64,000 nucleotides of DNA, taken from positions 1,612,001 to 1,676,000 of the forward strand of contig JAYWIR010000026.1 of assembly GCA_036172245.1 (NCBI GenBank). Reading direction: 5' to 3'. The notes below the pieces were generated by a model that was not told the DNA's origin, did not search any database, and saw nothing but the letters and a program-made list of their open reading frames with translations. The stretch comes from Raillietiella orientalis. Taxonomy: Eukaryota. A program made the position numbers and the translations under genes. This document shows, piece after piece, positions 1 to 17,274 of this stretch. Numbering within the stretch: the stretch's first letter is position 1; every line of letters begins with the position of its first letter.

Positions 1-516
1 TAGGCTCTTCGCCTCCGCACTCGTGCAGTCCGACGGAGGCGGAAAAGGGTGGACGCCCCCCTTGCCCTACTCTTCCACTTCCTGGAATGGCATGAGTGAC
101 TTCCGGTCCCGGTCCATTCCGCCTGAGGGAAGGAAGGGGAACTGACGGTCTGAAAAGCCTCCAGGGTCTGCAGCCACAAGACCTAGGAGGATCCGGGCAC
201 CTGCGGGAGCGCGATGTTCTGATGGCGAGCACTCCAGAGAAGAGGCAGGAAAGACTCCAAAGCAGCTACAGCCGGAGTCTCGTCGACCTTGCCCCCCATC
301 CACCCCCTTCCTTCTCTTCTTCCAGAACGAGAGAGGAAAACAGGGAAGACCCCGGGAAAGACAGGGAAGGGTAGACTGCAGAAGGGAACCCCCAGCCATT
401 CGAAAGATCACTGAAAGAAAAGATGGAAGAAGAAAAGGAAAGGAAAACATTAACCTTCCTTCGAGCCTGCTAGATGAAAAGATTCCGTTCTTTCTTCCGC
501 TTTTTGTTTTTGTTTT

Positions 517-522
517 TTTATT
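517..522 (-). terminator. Putative polyadenylation signal (AATAAA) of gene A
   Basis: tttatt on + strand, ~215 nt downstream of the gene A stop. Confidence 0.4.
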
Positions 523-735
523 CTCGCTGAAACCAGGGCCTGCACGCTCGACAAGGGATAGTGCGGAAGGTCGCCGCCGCCGCCGCCGCCGCTGCCATCG
601 TTGCTCTTCCAGTGTTTCAAAGGCACGCTGCTTTCCGGAATCACCTTCTTCCCAAAAAGCTTCCCTACCCTGGAAGAAAGGAAGGAGTGCACGTTCCCGG
701 TGTTTCCCTGAGGACGACCACCCCCATCCTCCCCG

Positions 736-1613
736 TCACGCACCAAGCATCGGTATGCGGAAGCCCCTCAGCAGATTCTGGAGCTCAGCTAGCTGTGTGG
801 TAAAGATGGTGGTCAGGTCGCTCAAGGACGGAAACCCTGCGTTCCCCAGGTTCATCAGGACGGTGTTGTTGCCGATCCTCCTGGTGATGGGGAAGCTGCG
901 CTGCAGAGATTCCTGGTGGGAAGAACGAGAGGAACGGAAGGAGGGGCTCTTTTGATCGGAGTCGGGATCACGCAGACGTTCGAGACCGGGAGAGAACCGC
1001 TGCACGATTGGGTGCGCCGGTGGGGACGACCTGGCAGCGCGGTAGTCAGTTCATCGTCCTACCTTAGCTTCCGGTGGGTAGAGGTGAAGGAGGGAGGATC
1101 CAAATCCGATCCACGAGGAGCGCCCGTCATCGCGTGGGGTAAGTCACAAGGAGGAGGAATGAGAGAGGAACCGCATGCCCCCTCTCTTCTCTCGCTGGTT
1201 ATAGGGGAGGAGGGGACGAGGGGGAGGGAGGGAGTGGCTCTCCACAACGCATGCCGCGAGATCCATGGAGCTCTTGATGGGCTGCGGCGGGGGGTGGAAG
1301 CGGAGGAAAGAGGGAGAGCACACGAGCACGGACCCACCTTACCCTCGCCCTCCTTTGTGGAGGGCCCCTCATTCAGGAGTGCTTCCGGGGGAAGTTATTT
1401 TGGAAAGAGGGAACAAGCGGAAGCGGGAAGAGGTGAGGTAGTACATGCGCCTAGAGACGGGGGAAGAAATGGGCGTCTACTCCTTACCTCCTGATGCTGC
1501 TGCTGCTGCTGCTGCGGCCGCTCGCCAGAAGACTCGAGGACTCTTGCGGCGCTCAGGACCACGAGCGCCAGAAAGAGCAGCAGCGTCCGTCCAGCGGTGT
1601 TTCGGATAAGCAT
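736..1613 (-). CDS. Orphan secreted protein A (~100 aa); exons 1613-1488 and 912-736
   Basis: Signal-peptide exon MLIRNTAGRTLLLFLALVVLSAARVLESS...QE ends at a GAG|GTAAGG donor (phase 0). It joins a pyrimidine-rich ccaccag acceptor in frame to ESLQRSFPITRRIGNNTVLMNLGNAGFPSLSDLTTIFT...MLGA*. An optional phase-1 intron 743-670 would give ...MLG*. Upstream TATA, downstream AATAAA, and a paralogous motif in gene B. Confidence 0.65.
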
Positions 1614-1777
1614 CGTCGTCGTCGTCGTGTCGTTCGCTCGCCTTCGTAAAGAAGGACACGGTGGTGGTGCCGCAGGGGATGACGTAAGCAGCCGTCAGCG
1701 CGAGGTCGGTCGTCGGATCGCTCCTCTCTCTGAGCGTACGCTCGGACGCAGCCTGCCTCCTCTCTGCCGGAACGCCC

Positions 1778-1785
1778 TTTAAATA
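1778..1785 (-). promoter_or_regulatory. TATA box (TATTTAAA) of gene A
   Basis: Isolated AT-rich octamer in GC-rich context, ~165 nt upstream of ATG 1613. Confidence 0.45.
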
Positions 1786-2799
1786 CTTCGCAGGAGAGGC
1801 GGCGGCGGAGGCCTCCTGCAACAGCGCCGAAGGAAAGCTCGCGCGCGCGCGCGATCCGGCAGACTTCTTGGAGGCGCTCGAAGGCGCTCGTTCTTGCAAG
1901 GAGGAGGGGCGCGATGGGAGGGGGCAAGCAGCGACGGAGAACTTGGAGATGAGCGCCGAGAGAAAGGAGGAGAAGAGGAAGGGGGAGAGAGAAAGAAAAA
2001 AAAACGCGGGTTCTGGGTGGACCGTTACGACCGCCACCAAAAGCGCATCCGGCTAGCGAGTCGCTCCGTTCTGCACACGGACCGTTCCTCTCTGCTATGG
2101 AGGAGCGGCGCCCAGAGTCTGAGAAAAGCGCATGGAGGGAGGAACGGCATGAAGAAGGAAGAAGTGCTACGTCTTCCTGCCTCGACAAGAGATGCTGGAA
2201 GATCGTCTTGGAGATTCCGGCTGCTGGACACCTTCGAGGTCAGGGCAGAGAGACTGCGTGCCCTGAATAGCGTAGCCTCTAGGAGGCTAGGGAGCGAATC
2301 AGCATGACCGGAAAAAAGGGCGAAAGCGGAAGCGTCCTTTCCCTTGGGGCCCCAACAAGGGCAGGAAAGTGGCTCCTCAATGAGCGTTGTACTCCGGTTG
2401 GTGGAAATAGGGTTAGAGGATCCCCTTTGCGACCCTCGCTCCTAGCCAGAGGCGTCTCTAGGGCTCTCGAGTGCAACCGGGAATCCTTTCTCCCTTCTTG
2501 TAACAGGAAAAATCAGAATGTGATGAGAAATGAAGAGGCTCTCTCCATTTCCTGCTGTGCTCATTTTGCAGGCGTTCCCTGTTCGGAGGAGGAATGTGGT
2601 GGTCGTGCCCATGTCAAGGAGGAGCTCCGTCTTCATTTCCGGGAGCACTGATCTTCACCCCCCATCTAGCTACCCGAAAGCCCGTGATCACGGAGAACAG
2701 ACCTAGAGGAAGCCAGCAGGGTGGACCGCTGCAACGGCTGAAGCCCGGAGAGCAGCGGAACTGGGAGGAGTATTGCTGAGCAGGATGGTGCTGGTTAAG

Positions 2800-5100
2800 G
2801 GGTGAGGGGCAGGAGGAAACAAAACGGCTATGGTTGTCATGGTGATGATGGGATCGATTGTGATGTCATGCTCTGCACATACAGTAGAAAGCGACAGGTA
2901 TGGGGAGCTTTTCCAGCACCCATTTCTTCCTGCTCCTCGTCCAGAGACCACAGAGGCTCCATCCTCGCAGTGGCGGCACGCGGCTGCGTCTCCTCTTTCG
3001 GCCCCTGTATTCCAGCTCTGTTCCTCAAGGATCCTCTCCTGGATTTCCAGGGACCCCTTTCCTGACCCCAGCTTCCACTTACTGGATCTGAAAGACGTCC
3101 CTCCGTCCTCTGACTCCGTCACTGCAGAGAAAAGGTAAGGCAGTTGCGGCAGGGAGCCACTCGAAAAATCGAGCGTGAACAGAAAACGATTACCGTGCCC
3201 ACTTTCGAACCTTTTCGACCTCTCTCTTGAAGTTTCGGGTATTCTAGAGATCTCTCTCTTGGGGCTTCCGGGTCACCTAGGGATTGAAAGCTTGCCGATC
3301 CGATATGGGAAAGACCACCAGTGATGTACCCGTTCGCCAGGATGAATCTCATTCCATCTTTGCACCTGCCAACGGACTTTCAAGTAGAGGGATCTCCAAT
3401 CCTGCGGTGGATCCGGGAATCAGACCAGGCGGGTTTGTCCCAGGTTACTTCTTTCCTTCTCTTCTCTACCGTCCAACGGAAGGAGGATCCAACTTTCCAA
3501 TTGGCCTACAGCTATCCCGTTGAGGAAAAGGGACGAATCCTGGATACCGTCCCCTGACAGACTACCACCAGGCGCTTCTTCCGGGGAGCGGGAAAGAGCA
3601 AAAGGCAAAAATCAACAGACCACCCGCTTTAGAGACGGAGATAAGAAGAACTGCTTGTCCGGTAGCAGAAGGACCACCGTAGCTTCCCGGGGGCGACCAC
3701 GCATCCGACCCAGACCTTGTCCCCCCGGAGGTGGTCGGAAGGGGAGATAGGGGGGGGCGTAGAAGACTCTGTACGAACGTCTTGCGGAGGTCCACGAGCG
3801 TACGTGGACCGCTCAGCTGCACCAGCCGGTGGTCTGCCCGATGGCTACGCGTCCTCGAGGCAGTCGAGTTCCGATCACGCCCTCACGCTGCTCCTGGAGA
3901 CCCTTGGTGGTAACGGTTCTCTACTCTGGAGGTGATAATGGTCTGCATGAGGATGCCGGCAGTGGTACGAAGGCGTCAACATCAGGAGCCGTGCCGGAAG
4001 CGCTGACTCGAGGTGCCTTCTCGTGCAGAGAATGGGAGTTCGCTGTACCCCCGCGGAGGAGCGGTCAGCCGTCGGGAGCGAGGACGTCGTAATCGCACGC
4101 TGAGGTTGGCAGGAAAGGCCGCGCGCGCTCATCCTCAGCAAATCCGGGCGCACGTGCAGGAGGTCGACGTTCGGACCTGGGAAGGGTCACAGGCGCCTTT
4201 CCGCTCGACAGCATCGCCCGTGGGTTCCGGAAAGCGGAAAGATCGCACGCCCGCTAGATCTTTCGTTTGTCCATAGCCGCCTTTCATGCCCTCTACGACC
4301 CCCTGCCCTTCAGAGCTCTTCTCAACGTCCTCTCAGAGCACTCTTTTCCTCTCGGTATAGGGGGACCCTCCCCAAAGTCCACTTTCATGTTGTCCATACG
4401 GAGTTTTTCCACCCACCCACCCGCTGAAGCGATCTGGTCCGCCGCCCTCGTCAATGATCATCCAATGCTTTCCCCGGAGACTTTCCTTTGCTGCTTCCCC
4501 ATGGCGACTGTGCCTCTCTGGGTCCCTGGTTCGGAGCTCCTGCTCCTAACCCCGGAGTCCGGGAAGAAGTCGAACTCTCCTGGAGGAACCAACCCTCAAG
4601 GTTCCGCACATGGTTTCTTTGCTGTCCAGGATTCGAGAGAATCCCAGTCTGGAAAGGGAAACGGAGCGTTCCGGATGGACCGGATGGACCCCATCTTGAG
4701 GAATATGGACCATAACTCTGTTGAATTCTGATCGCTCCACATTCCATCTTGAAGGTCCATCCGCAGCATCTCCCTATGTGGGAGGAGCTCGGCTGACAGA
4801 GCTCGAGCTTCCGATCTACTCTGAGAGCTTCCGAGGATGCAGCTCTGGAAAAGAGTCGGCAGCTGCGGTGACAACCGACCCTTGAGGAAAGTCCCTGGAT
4901 GGACGGCGCCTCTTGGCAGGTCGGTGATCCAAGCAGCACCCCTGATGTCCTGAATAAAAATCCTCCCTCTTCCATGATGCTTTTCGTCCGAACGATTCCA
5001 GGTTTCCAGCTTCTTCCCGGAGACCCTCCATAAACATTCTCCATAGCACGTTTGAAATCGAGGATGTTCATTCGGTGCGCAGATGAAAGCATCTTTCAAG
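2800..5100 (-). mobile_element. Decayed L1/Tx1-like LINE, ORF1 and AP-endonuclease remnants
   Basis: Fragments across frames: ELWSIFLKMGSIRSIRNAPFP (ORF1-like), RFILANGY (~NVYAP), SLGDP (~GDFN), frameshifted SR-LDF, and KWKLG..IQERILEEQSW (~WKLN). Boundaries approximate. Confidence 0.3.
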
Positions 5101-5249
5101 AGGCTCTCCTCTCTAGAGCGCTCAGAGACACGGCCTTATTCCTGGCTGTTTCGCTTCCCATTCATGGGTTCCCGAAGAGAAACGACTCAAGGAAGACCTC
5201 AAGATATCTGAATCGAAGTGTTTGGATAGGTATGTCTCTTCGTGGTCTT

Positions 5250-6950
5250 CAGAATGCTACTGCCGCTGACCCCTCCTCCGTTTCGCATCTTCATAATGGG
5301 ACTCGTAAGACCCTCAGGAAGTTCCAGAATCTCTTTGTTTCCCGGAAAGCTTCCTGAAGTGCAACGCAAAGTTGCACTGAACTGCACGAGAGGCCGAGAA
5401 TTCTGCAGATTAGACCGGGTGACTCCCTGCCAGGACTTGTTTCCAGGACATCCCTCTGTTCCCACTACCCGGAGGACAAAGTATGCAGCATTGCGACCAT
5501 CCCACAAGATCTCTCATCCCGCAATGGGATCTGTCTTTCTTCCCCCAACAAAAGATTAGCAGTAGCAGCTCCTCCGGAAAGAAGCTTCTTGTGACATTCT
5601 GATGACCCCCGCGGTCCCGGTTCTTAGAGCAAGTTGATGCCGAAGCTCAAACACGAATTGGAGATGCGATTGGATTCCTCAAAGGAAACCTCAAGATTCA
5701 GACGCGATGAGGTGATGCAAGAGGAAGGAAGCTGATGAGAGATGATCATCTGAAGAAAGCTCTCTGCTCTCTTTGAAGAACTCGCACGGGCTGTGAAAGT
5801 GGGGTAGAACTCGGCGGAACTCGCAAAGTCGAGGAGAGCTCGGCCGCCGAGGAAACTGGAAATCCTTCAGAGAAGTTCCGCGTGAGGCCTCCTGACCCAC
5901 CTCGAGGAAAGCTGACCTCGAATAGCATGTGAGTTCCAGTCTTTCCGAATCCGATCATCGGGGGAGGGCAGTTCCGGCCTAACAGTTCCCTCACGTTCCC
6001 TACGCGCGCGCTGCGCCTCTTGGAACGAGGAAGAGACTCGCAGATCGGCAAATCACCTGAAATCAGGATGTCGGGACAGGGAGAATGAAGAGAGGACTCC
6101 CGTGCTCTCTCCCGAGGAAATTCACGAGAATATCTTCTCCCTTCACTATCGATCTCGATGTATCCGGAACCCTGAAGGAATTCGATTCCGTTTCCGTAGT
6201 GACAAACGCAGGATAAGCAAGCCCTTGGGTCGTCCCCCTCGCCAAGTCCTTGAAGATCCCGAGTGGATGACGGCAGCAGCCATGTTCCCAAAGTTTACCC
6301 ACCCTGGTCCAGGCAACCCTGTTGACCTTATTCCAAGCATAGAGGAAACTACTTGTCTCTTCAGGGAGATATTGTTCCAGCCGCTTCATACGGCTTCTGG
6401 TCCAGAAGGTGCGTTCAACAGGCGTTCAACTCCTCGACTGTGCCATGTGTCCCAACGCACCACCACTCCACGCGCCTCGCATACGTGTCTCGGGGAATCC
6501 CGACATCCCCCTGATGTTCTTTCTTCGGTCCCTCCTCCTGTTTCCTTCCATCGTACTTCCAAAAAGTAGAGGACATGGTGAATGGCGGTGGCTCGGTTCT
6601 CCCGCTAAGGAACCACGCCTGACCGAAGTCGCGAGGCGGCTTGGATTGGCTGACTGCCATGGTTTCCGCTCAGCCTCTCGATCTGGGACTAACCAGACCA
6701 CCATTTTTCCGGTATGACAACTGCAGAAACTGTTGAGCAGACACTGGATGGTGGTATCTCGCCCATCTCGTCCATCATCTCCACCCACGACTAGTGCCTT
6801 CTTTTTTGTGAGGGTTTCTTGCACGAGTGACCAACGAAGAATCTTCACTGGGAACCCCTGCGGAGGGCTACGAAATGGCTCCTGGAGGGACCGGCAGCCA
6901 CAGGAGCGATTTTTGGATCTCTCGCCTAATGGATGCGAGGAACGGACATG
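5250..6950 (-). mobile_element. Decayed L1/Tx1-like LINE ORF2 (RT to zf-RVT)
   Basis: Motifs in the expected order across frames: QGF; ALVVGGD..LL..GKMVVWL; SPCPLLFGSTMEG..NIRG; TYARRV (~YADD); YEAAG; TLGTWL (~YLGI); GEDILVNFL..LPVP..SLFL; GGL; KLLSGGAAT..SCG..LHTL; KRFWNFLR. Confidence 0.5.
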
Positions 6951-8899
6951 GAGTTCCTGGAACAGAATGGAGGAAGCCAAGGATCGCGTGTACTGCCGCC
7001 TCCCGGGCAGTCGGTCAAGTTTCTTGAAGGTGACAGCCGGAGGAGTTTTGCTTCCGTGACATCCTTTGAGGAAGCAACGGATTTCTTTTCTTTATTTTTT
7101 TTACAAATCACGGAGCACCCTAATGCTCGGTGTGAAGGGACAAACGGCCAGGGGCTACCCCTTTTTCCGTGGAATCCTCCGTCCCAGAAAAACCACCCAC
7201 CTTCAGATCCCCTGAAGCTCCTCTGATTCGTAAAAGAGTTCTTTTTCCCAGTCCCTCTCGTAAGAATTGTGGAGTTCCCCCACTGGGCGTGTGGCCTGAC
7301 GGAATCCCGTTTGCAGCTCTACGGCTTCCCCCCCTCCTTCCCTGAGTGGAACGGTGAAAAATCCCGCAGCGCAGCCAATCGAGGAAGACCAGCGCGAATG
7401 GCAAGTTCCCGCCTACCTCGGCCGGAGCGAGCACGAGAGGAGCAGCAGCTTCAGAGACGAGCCGATGAGATCGGGAAGAACGGGAAGGAGGGCCACTCGC
7501 GGGCGTTCGCAGGCAGGCGACTGCCGAGGGCCGCTCGCCTCTGAGCCCTTCAGGGAAGGAGCCCTGGACTCGAGGAGATTTCCCTCTGGCTTCCGATGAT
7601 TTCGGCGGGAGGAGAAGAAGGGAAGAGGAGAAGGGGATCAGGCTGCCGTTTCCTTGCACGGTCTACGGATCAAGGGGCGCCAAATAGGCAGACGGCGGCA
7701 TGCTTTTCCTCCCTTCTAGTCGTGGATGCTGTCTGCAGAGGAACAAACACGTAAGCGCTTTCGCCCGTGCTTCGGGGGTCACCATTGTATGAGTTGATTT
7801 AATGAACTCCGCAGGCACCGATCGGGTCCGAGAACAACAACTCTCCATCTGGCCTCGATGGGAGCAGGGATGGCGGCGGAGATTGAAAGTCTCTAGAGGG
7901 CAGCGCCGTCCGGCCGCGAAAGCCGGCAGTCCGGGAATAGCAAACATCGATAAGAACCACCTTGATTTCTCTTACCGAGGTGGCGCTTGACCTCGTGCGA
8001 GACGGGAGTGCTTTCCGAATAGAGGGTAGTCCAGTAGTCCCCTCTCGGCTCTCGCAACATCTCCGACTGCTGGAGCGATAGCGCTCATCTCCATCATTTG
8101 GAGATGGGGAAAGGAAAAGGCACAGAGAAAAGCACGAAGCCCTGGAACCTTCGAGGAGTCGGTGGGTCGCACCCCACGCACAGCTCCCTTTCAAGCTTTG
8201 TGACCAGAAGCTGGAATGTCCCCTTTCCTCCTTCTTCCACCTCCTCGGCCCGCCCTCCCTCTCTAGTACTCAGGCACCCGGCATTCCTCCAAAGGTGGAA
8301 ACGTCTAAGTCAGGGAATTTCGTTTGTTCAGCGCTCGCAGGCCGCAAGAGGAGCACTGCGGTCAGATTGTCAGGATCCGGCGATGCTGAGCGGAATTTAA
8401 GCTGGGTTGACGGCAGCAGACCGTATTTTTTTCCCTCGAAGTCTTTCCCGTTCCTTCCCGTCCACCTCCTTTCCTGTTTTCAATTCAAGGGAACAGCTGG
8501 TGTCGTTGAGTTCGAAAGTTCTCGAATCGACAGACCTCTTGTAGGTTTACCGACTATTAGGTCTTCTGGCTAAGGTCAAAGGTGTAGTAGATCAAGTAAG
8601 AGATTTCACGCTGTGCAGCAAGAAATCTCCCACCAATCCGGCTGGCTACTTTCAGCACGCTTTTAAACGGGGTGCAATACTGGGGCTAGGGGCGTGCCTA
8701 CTTCCTTGGTCGCAGTCGTATCTCATGCAAGGACACTGTTCCAGAACATTGCATAGGACGGGACAGTTGTGGCCCAGGTGAAAGATACTTCATCTTGCCC
8801 ACGCAGCCGCGACCTCTTGCTGCCACGAGATGCAGCTCAGCAGCGGACAGGTGATCCACGTGTTTTTGCTGCGGAGGAACATGTGGATCTCCTACCCGC

Positions 8900-9900
8900 T
8901 GCAGGGAGGCCAGGGCCTACTACCCGCTGCTCTTTCAGGGGACGAGGGATTCTGCAACTTCATTCCAGCAGACCACTCTCCAAATGATGTTACAGGCAGA
9001 GAGAGACCGCTTCTGGTTCCACTGATGAGCCAACAAAGACATCCTGAGAAAGTGGACCTGAACTTCCGGTTTTTCCAGAGCCGGTATGGCCCGAGTCCCG
9101 CGTCATCACGCAACGTTTTTGCTCTTGGGGGTGTAACGAATTACCCTCCTCTCTCCCTTCTGTTCTCTGCACCTTCCGCGCTTGTTCAGAATGCCGAGAT
9201 GGACGCGGATTTCTTCAGCATCTCAGATGGCAGGAGAGGACGTTATCGCCTACTTGTGTGGAGCCACCCCCAAACCTCGATCAAGAAAGGTTCCTCCAGA
9301 CGCGACTCTGTTGCGAGACTTCGAAGAACGCGATAATTCTTCAAGAAGAAGGAACCTCCCTCTCAGATCTTCTTGCGTAGGGTAGGATGGCGGCCGTGAT
9401 GAGTATAAGATCCAGATCTCTCCGGACCGGCTTTATCTTCAGCTGCACCGAGGAACGAACAGGTTTGATTCCAGATGTTCCCAAAATAGTTGGTATCTCT
9501 CCGCCGGAACCATTCACGTCACTTGCCACACTTGGGGTGGATCACGCGATGCTCGCCTGCCATTTCCGGCCAAGACCTTCCTTGATGGTAGTCTTTCTCC
9601 TGCCGTGGAAAAGACCACGAGGCATCAGCAACAGTTTGAGAGCACCGCGCCCCTTCGTCAGCAACTGTCGCCCTGCCGCTCTGCCCCGCATGCGAGGAGA
9701 CTCCCCGCAGAATTAGAACAAGAATTCCCACGAATCCACCTGCTTCGAAGGACAGCTCTTTCACGTCTTGGATTAATTCCTTCCTCCTTGAAGCACATCA
9801 TCATCCGATTTCACAGAGACCTTCTGGAGGATCAACCGGCTCAACGCTCCAACAGCATCCGAACTCAAAGCACCTTGACAGACCAGCCAAGTCTTACGGA
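8900..9900 (+). mobile_element. Possible decayed LINE RT fragment
   Basis: HSPND..LVPL (~KSPGPDG), NYPPLSLL (~NYRPISLL), IVGISPPEPF..GV (~NG..F..GVRQG); very eroded. Confidence 0.3.
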
Positions 9901-10559
9901 TCCGAAGGATGCTGGAGCAACCGAGGGAGCTTCTGGAGAGTGGGGAGGCGAGGATGGCATGGGTTTCATAGAAAAAAAGGGATGCTCCCCTGGAGACGCA
10001 GGATACAGCTTTCGAAGAGCAGACTCCGGGACGACTGCATCGGAAGAGAAAACTGGAAAGTGCTCGGTGAAGGGAGTGGGTGGATACGGAAAGGCGACCA
10101 ATGGGTTGAGGAGAATAGAGATGGGGAACGAGGGAGAGATGAGGCAGGAAGGGGATGACCCTGTAAAGCCGCAGCGATTCGCAAGGCTTTCTACCAGAAG
10201 AGATGCTCCGAAATTTTCACCAGCCTCAAGGCCACGCTCAAAGACAGCGCCACCTCTCATTCTTCAGCATCCAGTCCCTCCCTCCCTTCATCCCTACCAC
10301 GTCGTACTCGCGGGGAGACGAGAGTTCCGCTTGGCTTGCATGCCGCCATGTTCTTGTCTGAAAGAATATGGCTTTCTCATTGGACGGAGAGGCATCTTCG
10401 CGGTCGTTGCCGATGATGACGGTCATTCCAGAGAGAGGAGGAAGTGAGAGGGAAGAAAAGCGAATCACGAGCCTTCAGAACCGACTGGGTTCACTGCGGG
10501 AGTTACTGCGGCAGAGCATTTTATAGCGCTTCTCTTCGTCGCTTGCTGATTGAACAACC

Positions 10560-11560
10560 GGTCGCTTCCTTTCTTGAATGTTTGTTCATGTGCTGGGTCC
10601 TCTCCCGAGACCAAAACACCTCATAATTGGTAGCAGAGCGCTTCCTTTCTCATTAGCAGAGCGCTTTCCTGCGACACGATGATGGAGGCCATTGGTGGAA
10701 GTAAGAAGAAGGGAAAGAGAGTCCATGACGACTCCCCTGGTGATTGTGTTACGATTAGGATCCGGAGGAAGACAAGTGGGATAGCGGAAACAAACGTCGA
10801 CGAGGGATCCTCCGAAGATCCAGGATCGGATGGAATCGGGATGGATGAGAACGGTACCAGGAACGGTTTTGCTGCATTTTCCGGGAGTCTCCGTCAGGAA
10901 TAGCCGCGCTCCCCAGTAACCGTCCGCAGCAACAATTTCTCCGCCTTTCCCATTCCCTACTCCGTCTGTGGTCCAGCGTTGCTTGTCCATCGCGACAGCT
11001 ATGCGGAAGCATACGAAGATGACCAAGGTGGGAGCAGACGCGCAGTCTCCTCGGAAACAGCCTCCCCGAGTCTGGATCGCGTCGTTTGGCAAGTCTCCGA
11101 CACATCCCTGGAGTGGCGAATTCTTGCGGATGTCTACTCACCCGGACATCTTTGGCTCCTTGGATCCCGACTCCTCCACCAGCTGAGTCGCTTATACCCT
11201 TCCTCCTGCCCGCGCGGTTTTTCCGACTGCTTTATTTGAGGTAGCAAAGGCATGCTTTCAGTCCCTGGAGCACATTTTCTTACTCTTTCACATGATGACC
11301 CTACCTTCCGGCTTGATTTCAAGACTTCGGTAGGTTCCAGCCGCGAGAGCCATGAAAGCGCCACGGCTGACTTCCGCTTCAGTAGAAACAGCGAGGGAGC
11401 AAGAGGAAGGTTCTTGGCAGAAGCTCGGGATGAGTCTCTGCACCTCGCGCCTGAGGCACTTCACACGGATCCTCAAAGTCATGGGGCCGGAGGCAGTCCC
11501 GAGGAGAGAGAGGCATGTGAGAGTCGACTCATCTTCCTCGAGGGATGCCTTCTTGTGTCG
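10560..11560 (-). mobile_element. Decayed L1/Tx1-like RT fragment
   Basis: TASGPMT (~KAPGPDG), QEEGYKRLSW (~KAFDRV.W), TRGGCFRGDCASAPTLVIF (~RG.RQGD..SP.LF), IVAADG..LFL (~YADD..FL), in order. Confidence 0.45.
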
Positions 11561-12310
11561 TTCTTGGGAATGCCGGACAAAGTGCGCATCGTCCTTCCGA
11601 AGGCGAGCTGGGAAGGATGGCTCCGCTCCCGCTCGAGCGCCGGTATTCCAGACCCAAGAAGGAGAGAGGGAGGAGGAAGAAGGGAGGGTGGCGAGTTGCA
11701 GGTGTCCTAACCCGAAGTCGAGGGAATGAGTTTCCAGGCCTCTCGGAAAAGCCTCTGGCACAGCTGGTCCGATGACGACGATCCTGAACAGATGCGAAAG
11801 GGCGCTCCATCCGCGTGAGCAGCGACGTGGGCATGCGGGGTGGGGCACGCGCTGCCAGTACGTGGGCATCGCGCAACGTGCACTGCAAGAAGGCTCCTCT
11901 TGCACAAGGACAGAAGAGGTGCGGCCTTACCAACTGCTGCTATGCAGAGTCCTGCCGCAGCAGCCTTTGCAAACGTACGCTGCTGCAGGCGGGCGCATGC
12001 GCCCGCCTTCCTCTCCTGCGGAGCTGCAGCCGGGTCCCGCACCAGAGCGTACGCTCCCTGATTTCGAGTTTTCCAGCTGTTTGCGGACGTGGGCGTGGGT
12101 CAGTGACCGCTTCCGATTCGGGTTGGACTGAGGATGTCCTTCCGGAGCGGGCTTGGGCGCCGGAAATTCCGGGCTGTTGTCTCCTGGCTCCGTGCACGTC
12201 TCGGGGAAGGCATGTGTGAAAGCAATGCACGAAAAGGGGAGGGGGGAGAGGGGAGAGAGGAGGAGGAGTAGAAGAAGAAAGAAACAAAAGCGGAAACAAA
12301 AACAATTTTT

Positions 12311-12316
12311 TTTATT
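12311..12316 (-). terminator. Putative polyadenylation signal (AATAAA) of gene B
   Basis: tttatt on + strand, ~305 nt after the stop at 12622. Confidence 0.4.
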
Positions 12317-12621
12317 TTTCGGGTCTGCCGGGATGGTCGCTCGGGAATCTCTTCCGGGTCTCTCTGAGTGTCCATGGGAACGGGAGGGGCCACTCGTTCT
12401 TCCGGCTGGCGTCGAGGCGGCCCAAGCCGGTCTGGCGCAGCACCGGGTATTTCTGCCGCGCTGTGGAGGACAAGCAGGGCTGTGGGGCAGCGGGGGAGCA
12501 AATCCCCCGCCGCCGCCCTCCGGGCCGCCTCTTGCCGGGACGAGTGGAAGATTCCCTGGATTTTTTCGTTTTTCCGCGAAAGTTCCCTCCGGGTGTGTCT
12601 TCGGTCGGTGCAGGGGCCGCG

Positions 12622-14317
12622 TCAGAGCTTCAGCTTCCTCTGCATCGCCCCGTACCTCTCCACCGCCCTCAACATCACGGACGCGAAGTCCCGGACCGCG
12701 CCTTCGAATTCCTTCGCAGACCTCCCCAGAATGGGGTTGACGACCGGGAGATTGCCTGGGTCTGAGGAGACAGCCGAAAGTCAGGCGGGCCTGAAAACCG
12801 CTTCCGGCGGGGGAGGAGTACTCACTCTGCAGCACAGCGAGCGGGTTGAAGAGCCGGAAGAGGGGACTGAAGAGGCCCCCGGAGAGGGGCCTGAAGTTGA
12901 GGAAGAGGTTGTTGAAGATGGACGTGAAGGCAGAGATGGCCTCCTGGAGGCTGGGGAGTCCCGGGGTTCCGAAATTCATGGACACCGTACTGTTTCCGAC
13001 TTGCTTGGTGAGGGTGCCCAGAAGCCTCCCTCCCTCCTCGCGCACCTGAGAGAGACGTTGAGCGAACCTTCTCGGTGGATACCGACAGCTCGGCCGAGGA
13101 GCCGGTAGGCAGTGGGCGCGGGAAACCCCGGTGAGCACCCCACCCGTCGCTTCTTTCCCACATACTCCCTTCTCCCCGTGCTCTCACCTTCCAAGACAGA
13201 GACGCGACTGCCATGGCGCTTCCAGCACACATTCCCTCCCTCCCTTCCTCCCATCTCTCTTCCCCTTGCCCTTGCAGGTCGCCTCCAGAAGACGGTGGCG
13301 AGTTCCGCAGGAAGGTGGAATAAGATGATGATGATGAGAGAGAGAGAGAGAGATCCGAGATTCTGCAGCGAGCATCATCATCGGAGCCTCCACCCCGCGC
13401 GCGGCTTCCTCCTCAGTGATGTGCCCGCTCCGCGGTCACGCCCCTCCGTTCGCCTTCCGAGATTTCGCCCGCTCGTAACGCGCGCGAGCCGAGCACTTGC
13501 CCTCCGGCACCTCGGGATCCGCCTCCAGCCCGGAAGAGGAGCTTGTGACCTGGATTGCGGAGACTCAGGCGATCGCTGAGGAGGCACGTTGAACCGAGGC
13601 GTCCGCGGAGGACCGCGAACGTCTCGGTTCGTACTGCTGCACGGAAGCGCGCGCAGGGCGGTCGGACGACACCACGCGGGAGAGGCCCAGCTGCCCGTTG
13701 GGGAGCGTGCGGGGCTCCCTCGAGGCCTCTTTCGTCCCTTCTTTTGCTGCTGTGCGAACCGGAAAGCTCCTTTCGTCGCTCTCTCGCCTCTTCGCCTTGC
13801 CTCCGAGGACATGCGAGCGGAGGGGTTTTTCCCTCCTGCTCCCTCGAGGTCCAGTGCCCCTCGCGAGCGAGACCTCCCGCAAGCACTGGGTTTTTCTCCC
13901 CAAACGGGGTCCAGAAAACGTCGTCAGCCTCCCCTTTCACCCCTCCCTCCTTAGACCAGTGTGGATGGGGACGGTTGGCGAACAGGTCGCGAAGGCGCTG
14001 GCCCTGCACATGCGAACCCGGAAGAACCCCGAGGGACAGGGATCTTCCTGGAGGAATGAGACATTTTTCCCAGAGTACCTCAAGCAAAAACCACCGGGAA
14101 CTTGTCCGAGGAAGGAAGGGTTAGGTCAACGGACCCCTTTTCTCTCGACCCTCCTGACCGTCGCGCATCCCTCCGCGCACGCGGCCGGCGGCGCGGGGTT
14201 CCCCCTACGGGACGGAGCTGTCCGAACCTGTCTGCTGCGGAGCGCCAGCCGCTGGCTCCGGACGCCGGACGCTTGGGACACCACCAGCAGCACCAGAGCA
14301 CATAGAAACAGCCTCAT
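12622..14317 (-). CDS. Orphan secreted protein B (149 aa); coding exons 14317-14228, 13045-12826, 12761-12622
   Basis: Signal exon MRLFLCALVLLVVSQASGVRSQRLALRSRQ|GTTCGG (phase 0). Acceptor ctctctcag leads to VREEGGRLLGTLTKQVGNSTVSMNFGTPGLPSLQEAISAFT...VLQ. A|GTGAGT opens a phase-1, 64-nt intron. Last exon reads NPGNLPVVNPILGRSAKEFEGAVRDFASVMLRAVERYGAMQRKLKL*. Exon lengths sum to 450 nt, in frame. Confidence 0.7.
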
Positions 14318-16112
14318 CTTCCTGATTCCTGGAACGAGAGGGAACAGAATGGCGGCACCAGGTTGTCCTCCCGGCGCGCGACGCAGTCTAGATCGCGAGG
14401 AAGGAAGAGAGAACAGGAAAGCGGAGCGTCCGTTCTGGCTCTTTCTCGGAGTTAGGGGAGGGAGAAAAGGGACGAAGATTCCCTTAGGAAACGGGTCCTC
14501 GTTCGTCGCCCGCTTCTGAGCTCTTCGGCGGACGATGACGAGAGGTATTGCCCTACTCCGGAACCTCGCTTTCTTCCCCCTCTCCACCTCTTTCACTGCC
14601 TCAGAGAAGGTCTCTGGGCAGCCCTGCAAGTTTCCTCATCTCAGAAGAGCAGACGGAGGCCAGGGCCGTTCCTGAAGCCAGGAGAATTTTACCCCCACCC
14701 CTCTTCTTCCTGGGAATGTCCGAAGTCTTCCCCCTTCCCCCCTCCGAGTCCCTGGGGTGCCTGTCGGAACCATCGGGCCGGAGTCCTTTGGCTCAAGATT
14801 TCCTTCAGGAAAATCCCTCCCTCGAACGGGAAGTCGGTTCTCAGGAGCGCTTGTGGGAGAGAGGGTAGGGAATGGGACGTGCACGCGCCCTTTCCAGCCG
14901 CTTTCCCGTCCCGTTTTTTCCCTGTAGGGTCCGGAGTAAGACAGAGTCTTAAATCTGCGCAGGATGCGCGGAACACTCCGACCGCGCTCCTTGCGGGCGA
15001 AGGGAGTTCCCGGAGGTTCCGGGACACCGGCCTCACTCTTAGCGGAATGAGGGGGACGCGTGAAACGCGCACGTAGAAGGACTCTCCTTTACTCTCCCCA
15101 GGGATAAGCAGCTTCTCCTTCTTCCTCCTAAAGGGAAAGTCCAGATCCGGACCTTTGGCGTCCGTCCGAGTCGGGAACTTTCCGGAGAGCGTTCTCCCGA
15201 ACTGCGCGACAGCAACTTCCGGGAGTGAGGGACTCTGGTCGCAACCCGGAAGAGGTCATCTAGGGGTGAAAAGGAACCAGGAAGCAGGGACCATCCTTCT
15301 TCACCCCCCTTCCGATCCCCTCTTCCGGCGAAAGAGGCGGCGCTGCTTTTCGGAAGTCTTCCACGCCCGTGTCGCCATCGATTCGAAGAGACGCGGTTTC
15401 TGGGATCGGAGGGAAGGGAACGGGGAGGAGAGGAAACGCGCGGTCGGGCGGAGAAGGCTCTCGTGGAGGGATGTTCGAGGGGACGAGGATCACGAGCACT
15501 ACGCTTATCCTCCTCTTCCCCTGCCCGCTTGCCTCCTTCCTGCTTTTCGTTCGGCGAGACCTCCGCCTAGGACGACTCCCGATCTCCCCAGCAGCAGCTT
15601 CTCAGGAAGCCTCTTCGTCCCGGAGGAGGAGAGAGGTCAGGGGAAAGGGAGCTGCTGCCGCCGCGTTCTCCTCCTCTGGGCGGTGCCGTAGAGTTGATGT
15701 TGGCGCTGGAGAGGGGGAGAGGAAATGGGACGAAAACAGCAGCTGGGAGAGCGGAGGCGTCTCGCTTCGCCTCCTCCTCCTCCTCGCTGCCGCCTCCGCT
15801 GTTCCTGTTGTCTTGGCTGCCGTTGTTTTTTGTTGTTTGTTTTCGCTCGGTTGGTCTTCGTTGGGAGAGCTGGAGAGAAGGGAGGGAGAAGGAACAGTCC
15901 CGCGGAGGGAAGCGAGACGGGGAGGGGAGGGGGGCGAGGAGCGAGAACGAGCGTGGACAGAGGGGAGGGGAAGGGGTGGGATGGGGTGGGGCGGGGTGGG
16001 CATGGGGAGAAACGCGGCACCCGGTCATCCTGCGCGCACTCGTCAGCGACCAACAAGAAAAACCAAAACAAAAAAGGAAGAAAAAAAATTTCTTTTCTTC
16101 TCTCTTTTTTAC

Positions 16113-16199
16113 CTGCGAGGAAGAGCGCGTGCAACCGGCGGCGTCACTAGGCGACGGACACTCGTAACGGGTCGTGACACTTACGTTTTTTTTTATATA
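16113..16199 (-). promoter_or_regulatory. TATA box (TATATAAA, 16199-16192) and short non-coding first exon, probably of gene B
   Basis: Canonical TATA, then a CAG|GTAAAA donor at 16113/16112. Gene B has an acceptor (ctcgttccag, 14331-14329) 11 nt before its ATG. Linking the two is inference. Confidence 0.5.
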
Positions 16200-17274
16200 G
16201 CCGCCAGCGGCCCCCTCCCTCCCCCCTCCTCGGGACTGTGGACTGACCGGTGGAGCGGGCGGGTAGGCGAGAGAATGGGGAGGGACGCGGATCTCCTGGG
16301 CGAATTCCCCGCCTGGGACCACCTTCACCCGCGAGCGGGGGCTCGCCATTGGCTGCGGGGGGGGAGGTCAGCAGGAGTGGGAGGGGGAGGATTATGTACC
16401 AGTGGGTCACGGAGGCTGGATGTAGGCTTCTGGAACGAACCATCTAAAATTACGTGCTCGGCGTCTTCGTTTCTTGTTTTCTGGTCCTTCCTCCTCCGGG
16501 AGAAACCGTTAACTCTCTCTCAGAGCCGGGAGAGAGACAGTCGTTGTCACCTTGGCGACGCCTGCACGCGCCGCCCGCCCCCTCCGCAACGCCGCGTGCT
16601 GCCGATGCGCACGTGAGCAATGTCTACCTCGGGAAAGCGAGCTGGGGATGAGAGATTCCCTCTTCCAGGGACCCCACAACGTCCTCTGGAAGAGGAAAGA
16701 GGCGGGTGAAGGAGGAAGGAAAGAGGAAAAGAACGGGAGGCACACAAAATGGCCGCCAGTCTGGCATCTCCCACGGTCTCCTTTCCGCTTCCCTCGTCCT
16801 TCCTCGACTCTGCAACCTCCTTTGGAAGCTTTCCCGGAGCTCTGGGAGAGGAAGATTGGCCTCCTGCGGGTCCCTTTTCTCTCCTTTCCACTTCTCCTCG
16901 GCATCCCCCGAAAGAGGCTGAAGAGGGTAGCAGGCACCCGCAGGAGTTCAGTCTCTCCGCCTGACAGTGGAAGGAGTATTCGCCCGCTTCCGCAGGAGGG
17001 GCGGACGCTGAGGGAGGGGGACAGAAGGGACGCAGGGGTTCCTTCCCTGGGGCGAACGAAGATGGCATGAGGAGCTTTGGCAAGTAGTTCAGCCCCTGCC
17101 GACGATCCCATCCTCCGGATCCAGGAAAAGGGACGTCCTCCCTTCCTCCTACTCTCCCCCTTCCTTTCTCTACTTCCCACCTCACGCTGACGAAGCTGCG
17201 GAGGGAAGGATTGGTCTGAATGAAATGGGAGGGGGAAGGGGCGAGCTTCCTTCCCTCTCCATCGGTCGTTATGA

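Follow-up and report, generated by a model that had tools for sequence, protein, structure and literature searches.

A tandem pair of genes for small, cysteine-free and probably secreted proteins sharing a conserved core in Raillietiella orientalis

The question raised by a 64,000-nucleotide stretch of Raillietiella orientalis DNA (contig JAYWIR010000026.1, positions 1612001-1676000, G000:C26; hereafter the window) is whether two short and similar coding segments on its minus strand belong to genuine, related genes, and what kind of protein such genes would encode. The two genes, A and B, were found to be tandem neighbours on the minus strand in head-to-tail order, the AATAAA of gene B being separated from the TATA-like box of gene A by about 10.5 kb. 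As read from their sequence, they are very probably intact, anciently duplicated genes for small cysteine-free secreted proteins. Gene A contained two coding exons (1613-1488 and 912-736, minus strand) for 100 amino acids, and gene B contained three (14317-14228, 13045-12826 and 12761-12622, minus strand) for 149 amino acids, with no internal stops in either. A first-pass annotation of the window had pointed to a 30-residue segment common to both, and the two segments were found on the minus strand at 888-799 in A and 13012-12923 in B, aligning without gaps at 14 of 30 positions. Its exon models also held, being free of internal stops and separated by GT-AG introns, with a phase-0 intron preceding exon 2 in both genes. 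The acceptors at this border were located 3 codons apart in the alignment.

The similarity of A and B was found to lie far above chance. The spliced proteins reached a local score of 109, which none of 5000 shuffles attained (shuffled sequences averaged 29 and peaked at 56), and the best ungapped identity over 30 residues never exceeded 12 when exon 2 was shuffled 3000 times. In a 544-kb region of the contig (G000:C26:1352001-1896000), only one of the 552,357 six-frame windows of 30 residues, besides A itself, was found to contain 14 identities to the A core, and this window was gene B, followed by three windows with 10 identities. A phmmer search of the same region matched A to B with an E value of 1.2e-4 and B to A with 1e-5, followed by matches at 3.6 and 0.88. 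In the whole genome as searched (210 Mb in 491 contigs), each exon 2 matched itself and the other only (E 0.003; both of the two candidates scored), 12 kb apart, and the mutual match amounted to 25.4 and 25.9 bits. The homology was found to extend over about 45 residues, to the end of a predicted helix, with 21 of the 77 alignment columns invariant, and the 30 residues first annotated were thus too short. The old duplication suggested by the first-pass annotation is borne out by this similarity together with constraint on the protein, with a family that consists of two members so far.

The constraint was seen in the codons. Only 3 of the 14 identical residues were encoded by the same codon, and one of these was Met. 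A dN/dS comparison found the silent sites saturated (proportion of silent differences, pS, 0.85; dS beyond estimate) against a proportion of amino acid-changing differences (pN) of 0.35 (dN about 0.48), a pN lowered by the choice of the codon window for its protein similarity, which leaves the silent changes at identical residues unaffected. The GC content reached 0.77 and 0.84 at third codon positions, compared with 0.61-0.64 for the introns, and the hydrophobic residues of both proteins were found to recur at helical spacing. A protein conserved while its silent sites became saturated points to purifying selection.

That expression of the pair departs from the models, the genes being decayed duplicates or the conserved frame being a shadow of one on the plus strand, is very improbable. 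In its favour, the splice junctions were drawn from the sequence only, and the plus-strand frame that shares the wobble positions was found to contain 13 identities in 29 residues, a number to be expected from a shadow, and to be open at both places. Decay is opposed by the silent sites, which are saturated, yet five stop-free coding exons, in-frame GT-AG introns and an AATAAA after each stop are present. The shadow frame is opposed by a lower BLOSUM score (59 against 76), a lower local score (64 against 87), more radical changes (9 against 5) and a length of only 84 codons in B. A transposon origin, named in the first-pass annotation as a possible refutation, was rejected, as both exon-2 regions were found to be single-copy DNA with one match each in the genome, to themselves. 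A comparison of window positions 1-17000 with the 544-kb region gave no non-self match.

On the minus strand, gene A was found to contain a TATA-like box, TATTTAAA (1778..1785), placed 172 nt before the ATG with a leader free of upstream ATG codons, followed by coding exon 1 (1488..1613) of 42 codons, with a signal-peptide-like start, a Gln-rich spacer and a consensus phase-0 donor. The putative intron (913..1487) contained 575 nt with GT-AG borders, phase 0 and a pyrimidine-rich acceptor, followed by coding exon 2 (736..912) of 58 codons and the stop, which would encode the predicted hairpin, linker and helix. The shared 30-codon core (799..888) contained a sequon at Asn57, and an AATAAA (517..522) was present about 215 nt past the stop.

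Gene B, also on the minus strand, contained a first coding exon (14228..14328) with an acceptor at 14329, an 11-nt leader, the ATG at 14317 and a signal-peptide-like start. The putative intron 1 (14227-13046) contained 1182 nt with GT-AG borders and phase 0, followed by coding exon 2 (12826..13045), predicted to encode the hairpin, linker and helix and then a Leu/Phe/Pro-rich stretch. The core (12923..13012) contained a sequon at Asn48. The putative intron 2 (12762..12825) of 64 nt had GT-AG borders and phase 1, followed by coding exon 3 (12622..12761), which would contribute a second, strongly amphipathic helix (moment p 0.008) that is lacking in gene A, and by an AATAAA (12311..12316) about 305 nt past the stop. 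The donor of the first coding exon (14227) was weak and non-consensus, and alternative phase-0 GT dinucleotides were present at 14158, 14149 and 14134.

A TATA box and an AATAAA had been annotated in both genes. The AATAAA was present in both (522 and 12316), and the TATA box was confirmed in A (1785) and not in B, where none was found near the ATG and the nearest was at 16199, 1.9 kb upstream. Since a strong acceptor precedes the ATG of gene B by 11 nt and the nearest TATA is at this distance, a non-coding leader exon would be needed. The candidate promoter, TATATAAA (16192..16199, minus strand), is uncertain and requires such an exon, for which the candidate was 16113..16170 (minus strand) with a donor at 16112; alternatively this segment may be the tail of a short intron. 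At 16185-16113 (minus strand), a consensus donor was found right after the TATA-like run, followed by a pyrimidine-rich CAG 73 nt on, which makes a short intron possible, and in that case the promoter of gene B would shift further upstream. The promoter and 5′ end of gene B are thus uncertain, as more than one arrangement appears to fit the sequence.

The proteins were next considered as secreted products. Both ATG codons were followed by a basic residue and an uncharged hydrophobic stretch, with an 11-residue hydropathy of 3.19 in A and 3.52 in B, and small residues were present at the putative signal cleavage site in both, a heuristic criterion. The signal-peptide exon annotated in both genes was thus recovered by a hydropathy heuristic. 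Only 11 of the 13,320 ATG codons in the 544-kb region passed a signal-peptide-like filter of this kind, A and B among them, with a threshold set in knowledge of the A and B values. Beyond residue 30, no transmembrane-like stretch was found, the best 19-residue hydropathy being 0.76 and 1.24. The mature parts contained no Cys, no Trp and no His-rich sites, and their net charge was about +10 in B and +1, nearly neutral, in A. The N-x-T sequon was conserved as annotated, with one N-x-[ST] in each protein in the same alignment column. Its Asn would be the turn Asn of the predicted hairpin, so that its conservation is compatible with glycosylation without requiring it.

Proteolytic processing, which the first-pass annotation had proposed from LRSR and from a paired-Arg site, found no support, as B has Lys-Gln opposite the Arg-Arg of A and LRSR does not fit the R-X-[K/R]-R pattern. 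The precursors of neuropeptides and peptide hormones contain a signal peptide, a variable spacer and a short conserved core flanked by basic sites, with an amidation signal. A and B share with them the signal peptide, the spacer and the short core, and might accordingly be read as secreted signalling-peptide precursors that are cut at basic residues and release the core as a receptor ligand. The small size of the secreted proteins and minimal R-x-x-R patterns at B20, B29 and A91 would suit this. Unlike such precursors, A and B were found to lack furin-type R-X-[K/R]-R sites, conserved paired-basic sites and a Gly-basic amidation signal. They have no basic site in common, and their only dibasic pairs were at A53, inside the core and opposite the Lys-Gln of B, and at B145. 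A signalling role is quite improbable.

The shape of the core was predicted with AlphaFold in separate runs on one two-row alignment, and the same topology was obtained in register for A and B. In the predicted core, a two-strand hairpin leads through a Gly/Pro linker into a helix 18-21 residues long, with strands at 10-16 and 19-25 and the helix at 33-50 in B, and strands at 8-13 and 16-21 and the helix at 30-50 in A. The invariant residues of the core are read from these models as structural, with Gly-Asn probably placed in the turn. Gly-Asn pairs favour tight hairpin turns. Fold searches with these low-confidence models gave no match that rose over background, with best Z scores of 2.5 and 3.0, and Foldseek gave no match with E below 0.001.

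From these features, A and B are tentatively taken as a self-associating pair of extracellular-matrix glycoproteins of cuticle type, a best guess that could well prove wrong. After signal cleavage, the unit of about 45 residues would fold into the two-strand hairpin with its Gly-Asn turn, the Gly/Pro linker and the helix, the latter begun by a Ser-x-x-Asp/Glu capping box (predicted at low confidence). Because the unit is small, is without disulfide or metal site and has an open Leu/Phe/Ile face, it would need a partner, of which the simplest is a copy of itself or the paralog, and the exposed face may pack against either. Assembly would then take place in an extracellular matrix, of which cuticle, egg envelope and gland secretion are examples; a glycan, if present at the tip of the hairpin, would face the solvent, and gene B would contribute its second amphipathic helix. 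The presence of further secreted-type genes in the neighbourhood of A and B was counted in favour of this reading.

Several points weigh against it. The confidence of the models was low (mean pLDDT 62 and 65, pTM 0.26 and 0.32), with the helix of A at about 80. An amphipathic helix had been annotated in both proteins, and in a shuffle test the amphipathicity was significant for B (p 0.011) and not for A (p 0.12). The lowered pN, the weak first coding donor of gene B and the uncertain 5′ end of the same gene count on this side as well. No tested cuticle signature was found in A or B, in which the numbers of Tyr were 0 and 1 and those of His 1 and 0. A secreted amphipathic helix would moreover suit the binding of a lipid or of a receptor equally well.

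Lipid binding was therefore weighed as an alternative in which A and B are secreted interface proteins whose helices fold on epicuticle lipids, gland surfactant or microbial membranes, with the hairpin as an accessory cap. This is unlikely, while deserving some weight. Both helices of B were amphipathic (p 0.011 and 0.008), and mature B was strongly cationic with 35% Leu/Phe/Ile/Val/Met. The defence peptides of crustaceans are described as cationic and amphipathic in the sections of PMC9409781 that treat them, and penaeidins, crustins, ALFs and linear helical peptides are there likewise small and secreted with an amphipathic helix; ALFs also contain a hairpin, and B resembles these peptides in its charge (PMC9409781, in part). 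Unlike penaeidins, crustins and ALFs, A and B were without their cysteines and disulfides and without a WAP or Pro/Arg-rich domain, and contained a conserved sequon. Mature A was nearly neutral, the strongest conservation was found in the hairpin and linker and not in the helix face, and the searches brought up no more than two copies and no sign of a local expansion.

The reading as matrix glycoproteins was then compared with the cuticular families. CPR, CPF/CPFL, CPAP, CPCFC, Tweedle, CPG, CPH and apidermin proteins are likewise small and secreted with a signal peptide in their descriptions in PMC12426002, and the parts of that source on CPF/CPFL and apidermins describe both as being without a chitin-binding domain and apidermins as hydrophobic. 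The Rebers-Riddiford domain of CPR (PF00379) and the 44-residue or C-terminal motif of CPF/CPFL (PF11018) were absent from the five coding exons of A and B when these were scanned exon by exon with Pfam. For CPAP/peritrophin and CPCFC, no Cys and no C-X5-C was present in either mature protein. None of the three consensus block patterns of Tweedle, as given in a section of PMC12426002, was found in A or B. For CPG, CPH and apidermin, A and B were found to contain no AAP(A/V) and no GGX repeat (one GGL in B and none in A), with Ala at 4-6%. The pair may act like a chitin-independent cuticle protein, yet lies outside every named family tested. A bolder extension is a long shot: that the hairpin, linker and helix form an undescribed cysteine-free assembly module, that A and B together would make a glycan-tipped hetero-oligomer or fibre in a chitin-independent matrix layer, and that an old family is spread across poorly sampled pancrustaceans and was missed as short, spliced and fast-evolving.

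No named family had been recognised for the motif, and none was found, as Pfam gave no match on any of the five coding exons scanned singly. Among PDB sequences, there were 0 matches. A word-index protein search found no relative of B exon 2 among 7 candidates or of B exon 3 among 16, and the ESM Atlas, with low recognition, gave no usable match for either exon queried. No match was present among the 14 candidates from viral contigs. A keyword search of the literature found no description of such a family, which cannot show that none exists.

Several candidates were rejected. Among 1.84 billion proteins, a profile search matched a single one, an LRR/FN3 repeat protein of bacterial type, and its score was the sum of three pieces of 8-11 bits. 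One of the 57 candidates from prokaryote genomes was a short linker match in an apparent multiheme protein, and one of the 31 from metagenomes was on the antisense strand of an apparent bacterial gene. A supposed likeness of the B exon-3 tail to a common crustacean C-terminal motif found no support.

Genome-wide protein searches, for which both exon 2s and B exon 3 served as queries, brought up no third copy in the animal itself; these searches score filtered candidates only, so that distant copies elsewhere could escape. Nor did two degenerate patterns, which matched at 10 and 13 places genome-wide (controls 2 and 7), reveal a third copy. Of these matches, 8 and 11 lay beyond A and B; each was translated and found to lack the rest of the core, and the best profile E value among 2,372 fragments was 0.03. 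A third copy was likewise absent when 744 kb of the contig, made up of the 544-kb region and a further 200 kb, were searched with a profile and without a filter, the next best E values being 2.7 and 0.55.

The absence of relatives carries little power, and the orphan status of the pair is weakly tested. In a library of 1.84 billion proteins, an E value of 0.001 needs about 35 bits, and as A and B match each other with only about 25 bits, a relative as distant as the paralogs would be invisible to such searches. The distance to named relatives was gauged with one gene, an SDR gene of the sniffer/C-factor type with several exons in the window (55328-52903, minus strand). The best protein match of its last exon was at 68% identity, and the best named ones, insects and Penaeus alike, were at 62-65% (106 hits from 644 candidates), so that no close relative of the animal seems to be present in the protein collections. 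On this one gene, the animal is placed among the arthropods and probably among the pancrustaceans.

A and B might be fast-evolving members of an arthropod family already in the databases and too diverged to be detected, an explanation that concerns the novelty of the pair and is compatible with any function. Failure of detection accounts for many lineage-specific genes in the part of PMC7660931 bearing on this. On the other side, neither Pfam nor PDB sequences, the word-index search, the profile search or the ESM Atlas yielded a relative at any level, none of the tested cuticle families was represented by its defining motifs, and the calibration comes from a single gene. Such hidden membership is unlikely and is given only a small chance.

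In its kind, the pair resembles the orphan secreted genes of arthropods in short length, signal peptide, tandem duplication and lack of detectable relatives (PMC1940262 and PMC7660931, each in part). In Daphnia, 39% of 787 sequences were without an insect match, according to a section of PMC1940262. These orphans are a class of gene and not a family, and A and B differ in being deeply split from each other around a constrained core, which indicates that the gene is old although homologs outside the pair are not seen. New as a sequence family, the pair belongs to a familiar kind of gene.

Genes restricted to one lineage are widespread among animals, and arthropods, above all their poorly sampled lineages, hold many secreted orphans. 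As it stands, the pair would not surprise a specialist. If confirmed, it would add a new small secreted module to the extracellular toolkit of arthropods and a two-sequence seed with which the module could be found in unannotated genomes and transcriptomes. Its weight would grow if the module proved widespread or self-assembling, as a new matrix or biomaterial unit.

The surroundings of A and B were found to contain sharp compositional domains, the GC content per 10 kb spanning 0.30-0.67 across the 544-kb region. The AT-rich blocks contained the SDR gene and the stathmin-like gene, and the GC-rich blocks contained the secreted genes. A stathmin-family gene with short introns (PF00836, E 2e-15) was present at the AT-rich end of the window (about 63700-62800, minus strand). 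A third probable secreted gene (42553-39564, minus strand; exon borders approximate) was found to begin with a hydrophobic segment and to contain another hydrophobic exon near 40431-40280 and a Tyr/Gly/Pro-rich last exon ending in Glu/Gln runs; Pfam gave no match for it, no likeness to A or B was seen, and its middle exon was single-copy genome-wide. The strongest coding-like bias of the window was found in a coiled-coil-like open frame of 137 codons (50166-49756, minus strand), whose Pfam matches were weak and all under the curated cut-offs.

Short frames that look by eye like decayed pieces of retroelements without long terminal repeats (non-LTR) were present at L048 2960-3726, L050 4895-5104 and L007 3507-5604, with no Pfam match among the at most five pieces scanned. 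Between genes A and B, no such pieces were detected in the comparison of window positions 1-17000 with the 544-kb region. A large probable secreted gene was found from L048 8840 to L049 5406 (plus strand), 140 kb from the pair. A hairpin-like stretch with a sequon in this gene resembles the core by eye and was set aside, having no score against A or B. The cysteine spacing near its end is presumably DM4/DM12-like, as judged by eye, and Pfam gave no confirmation.

A Dof/BCAP-like gene with a DBB motif and an ankyrin-like stretch was found about 70 kb from an FGF-family gene (L010 1245-3991 and L063 1997-4102, both on the plus strand). In flies, Dof works downstream of FGF receptors, and the closeness of the two genes here may be due to chance.

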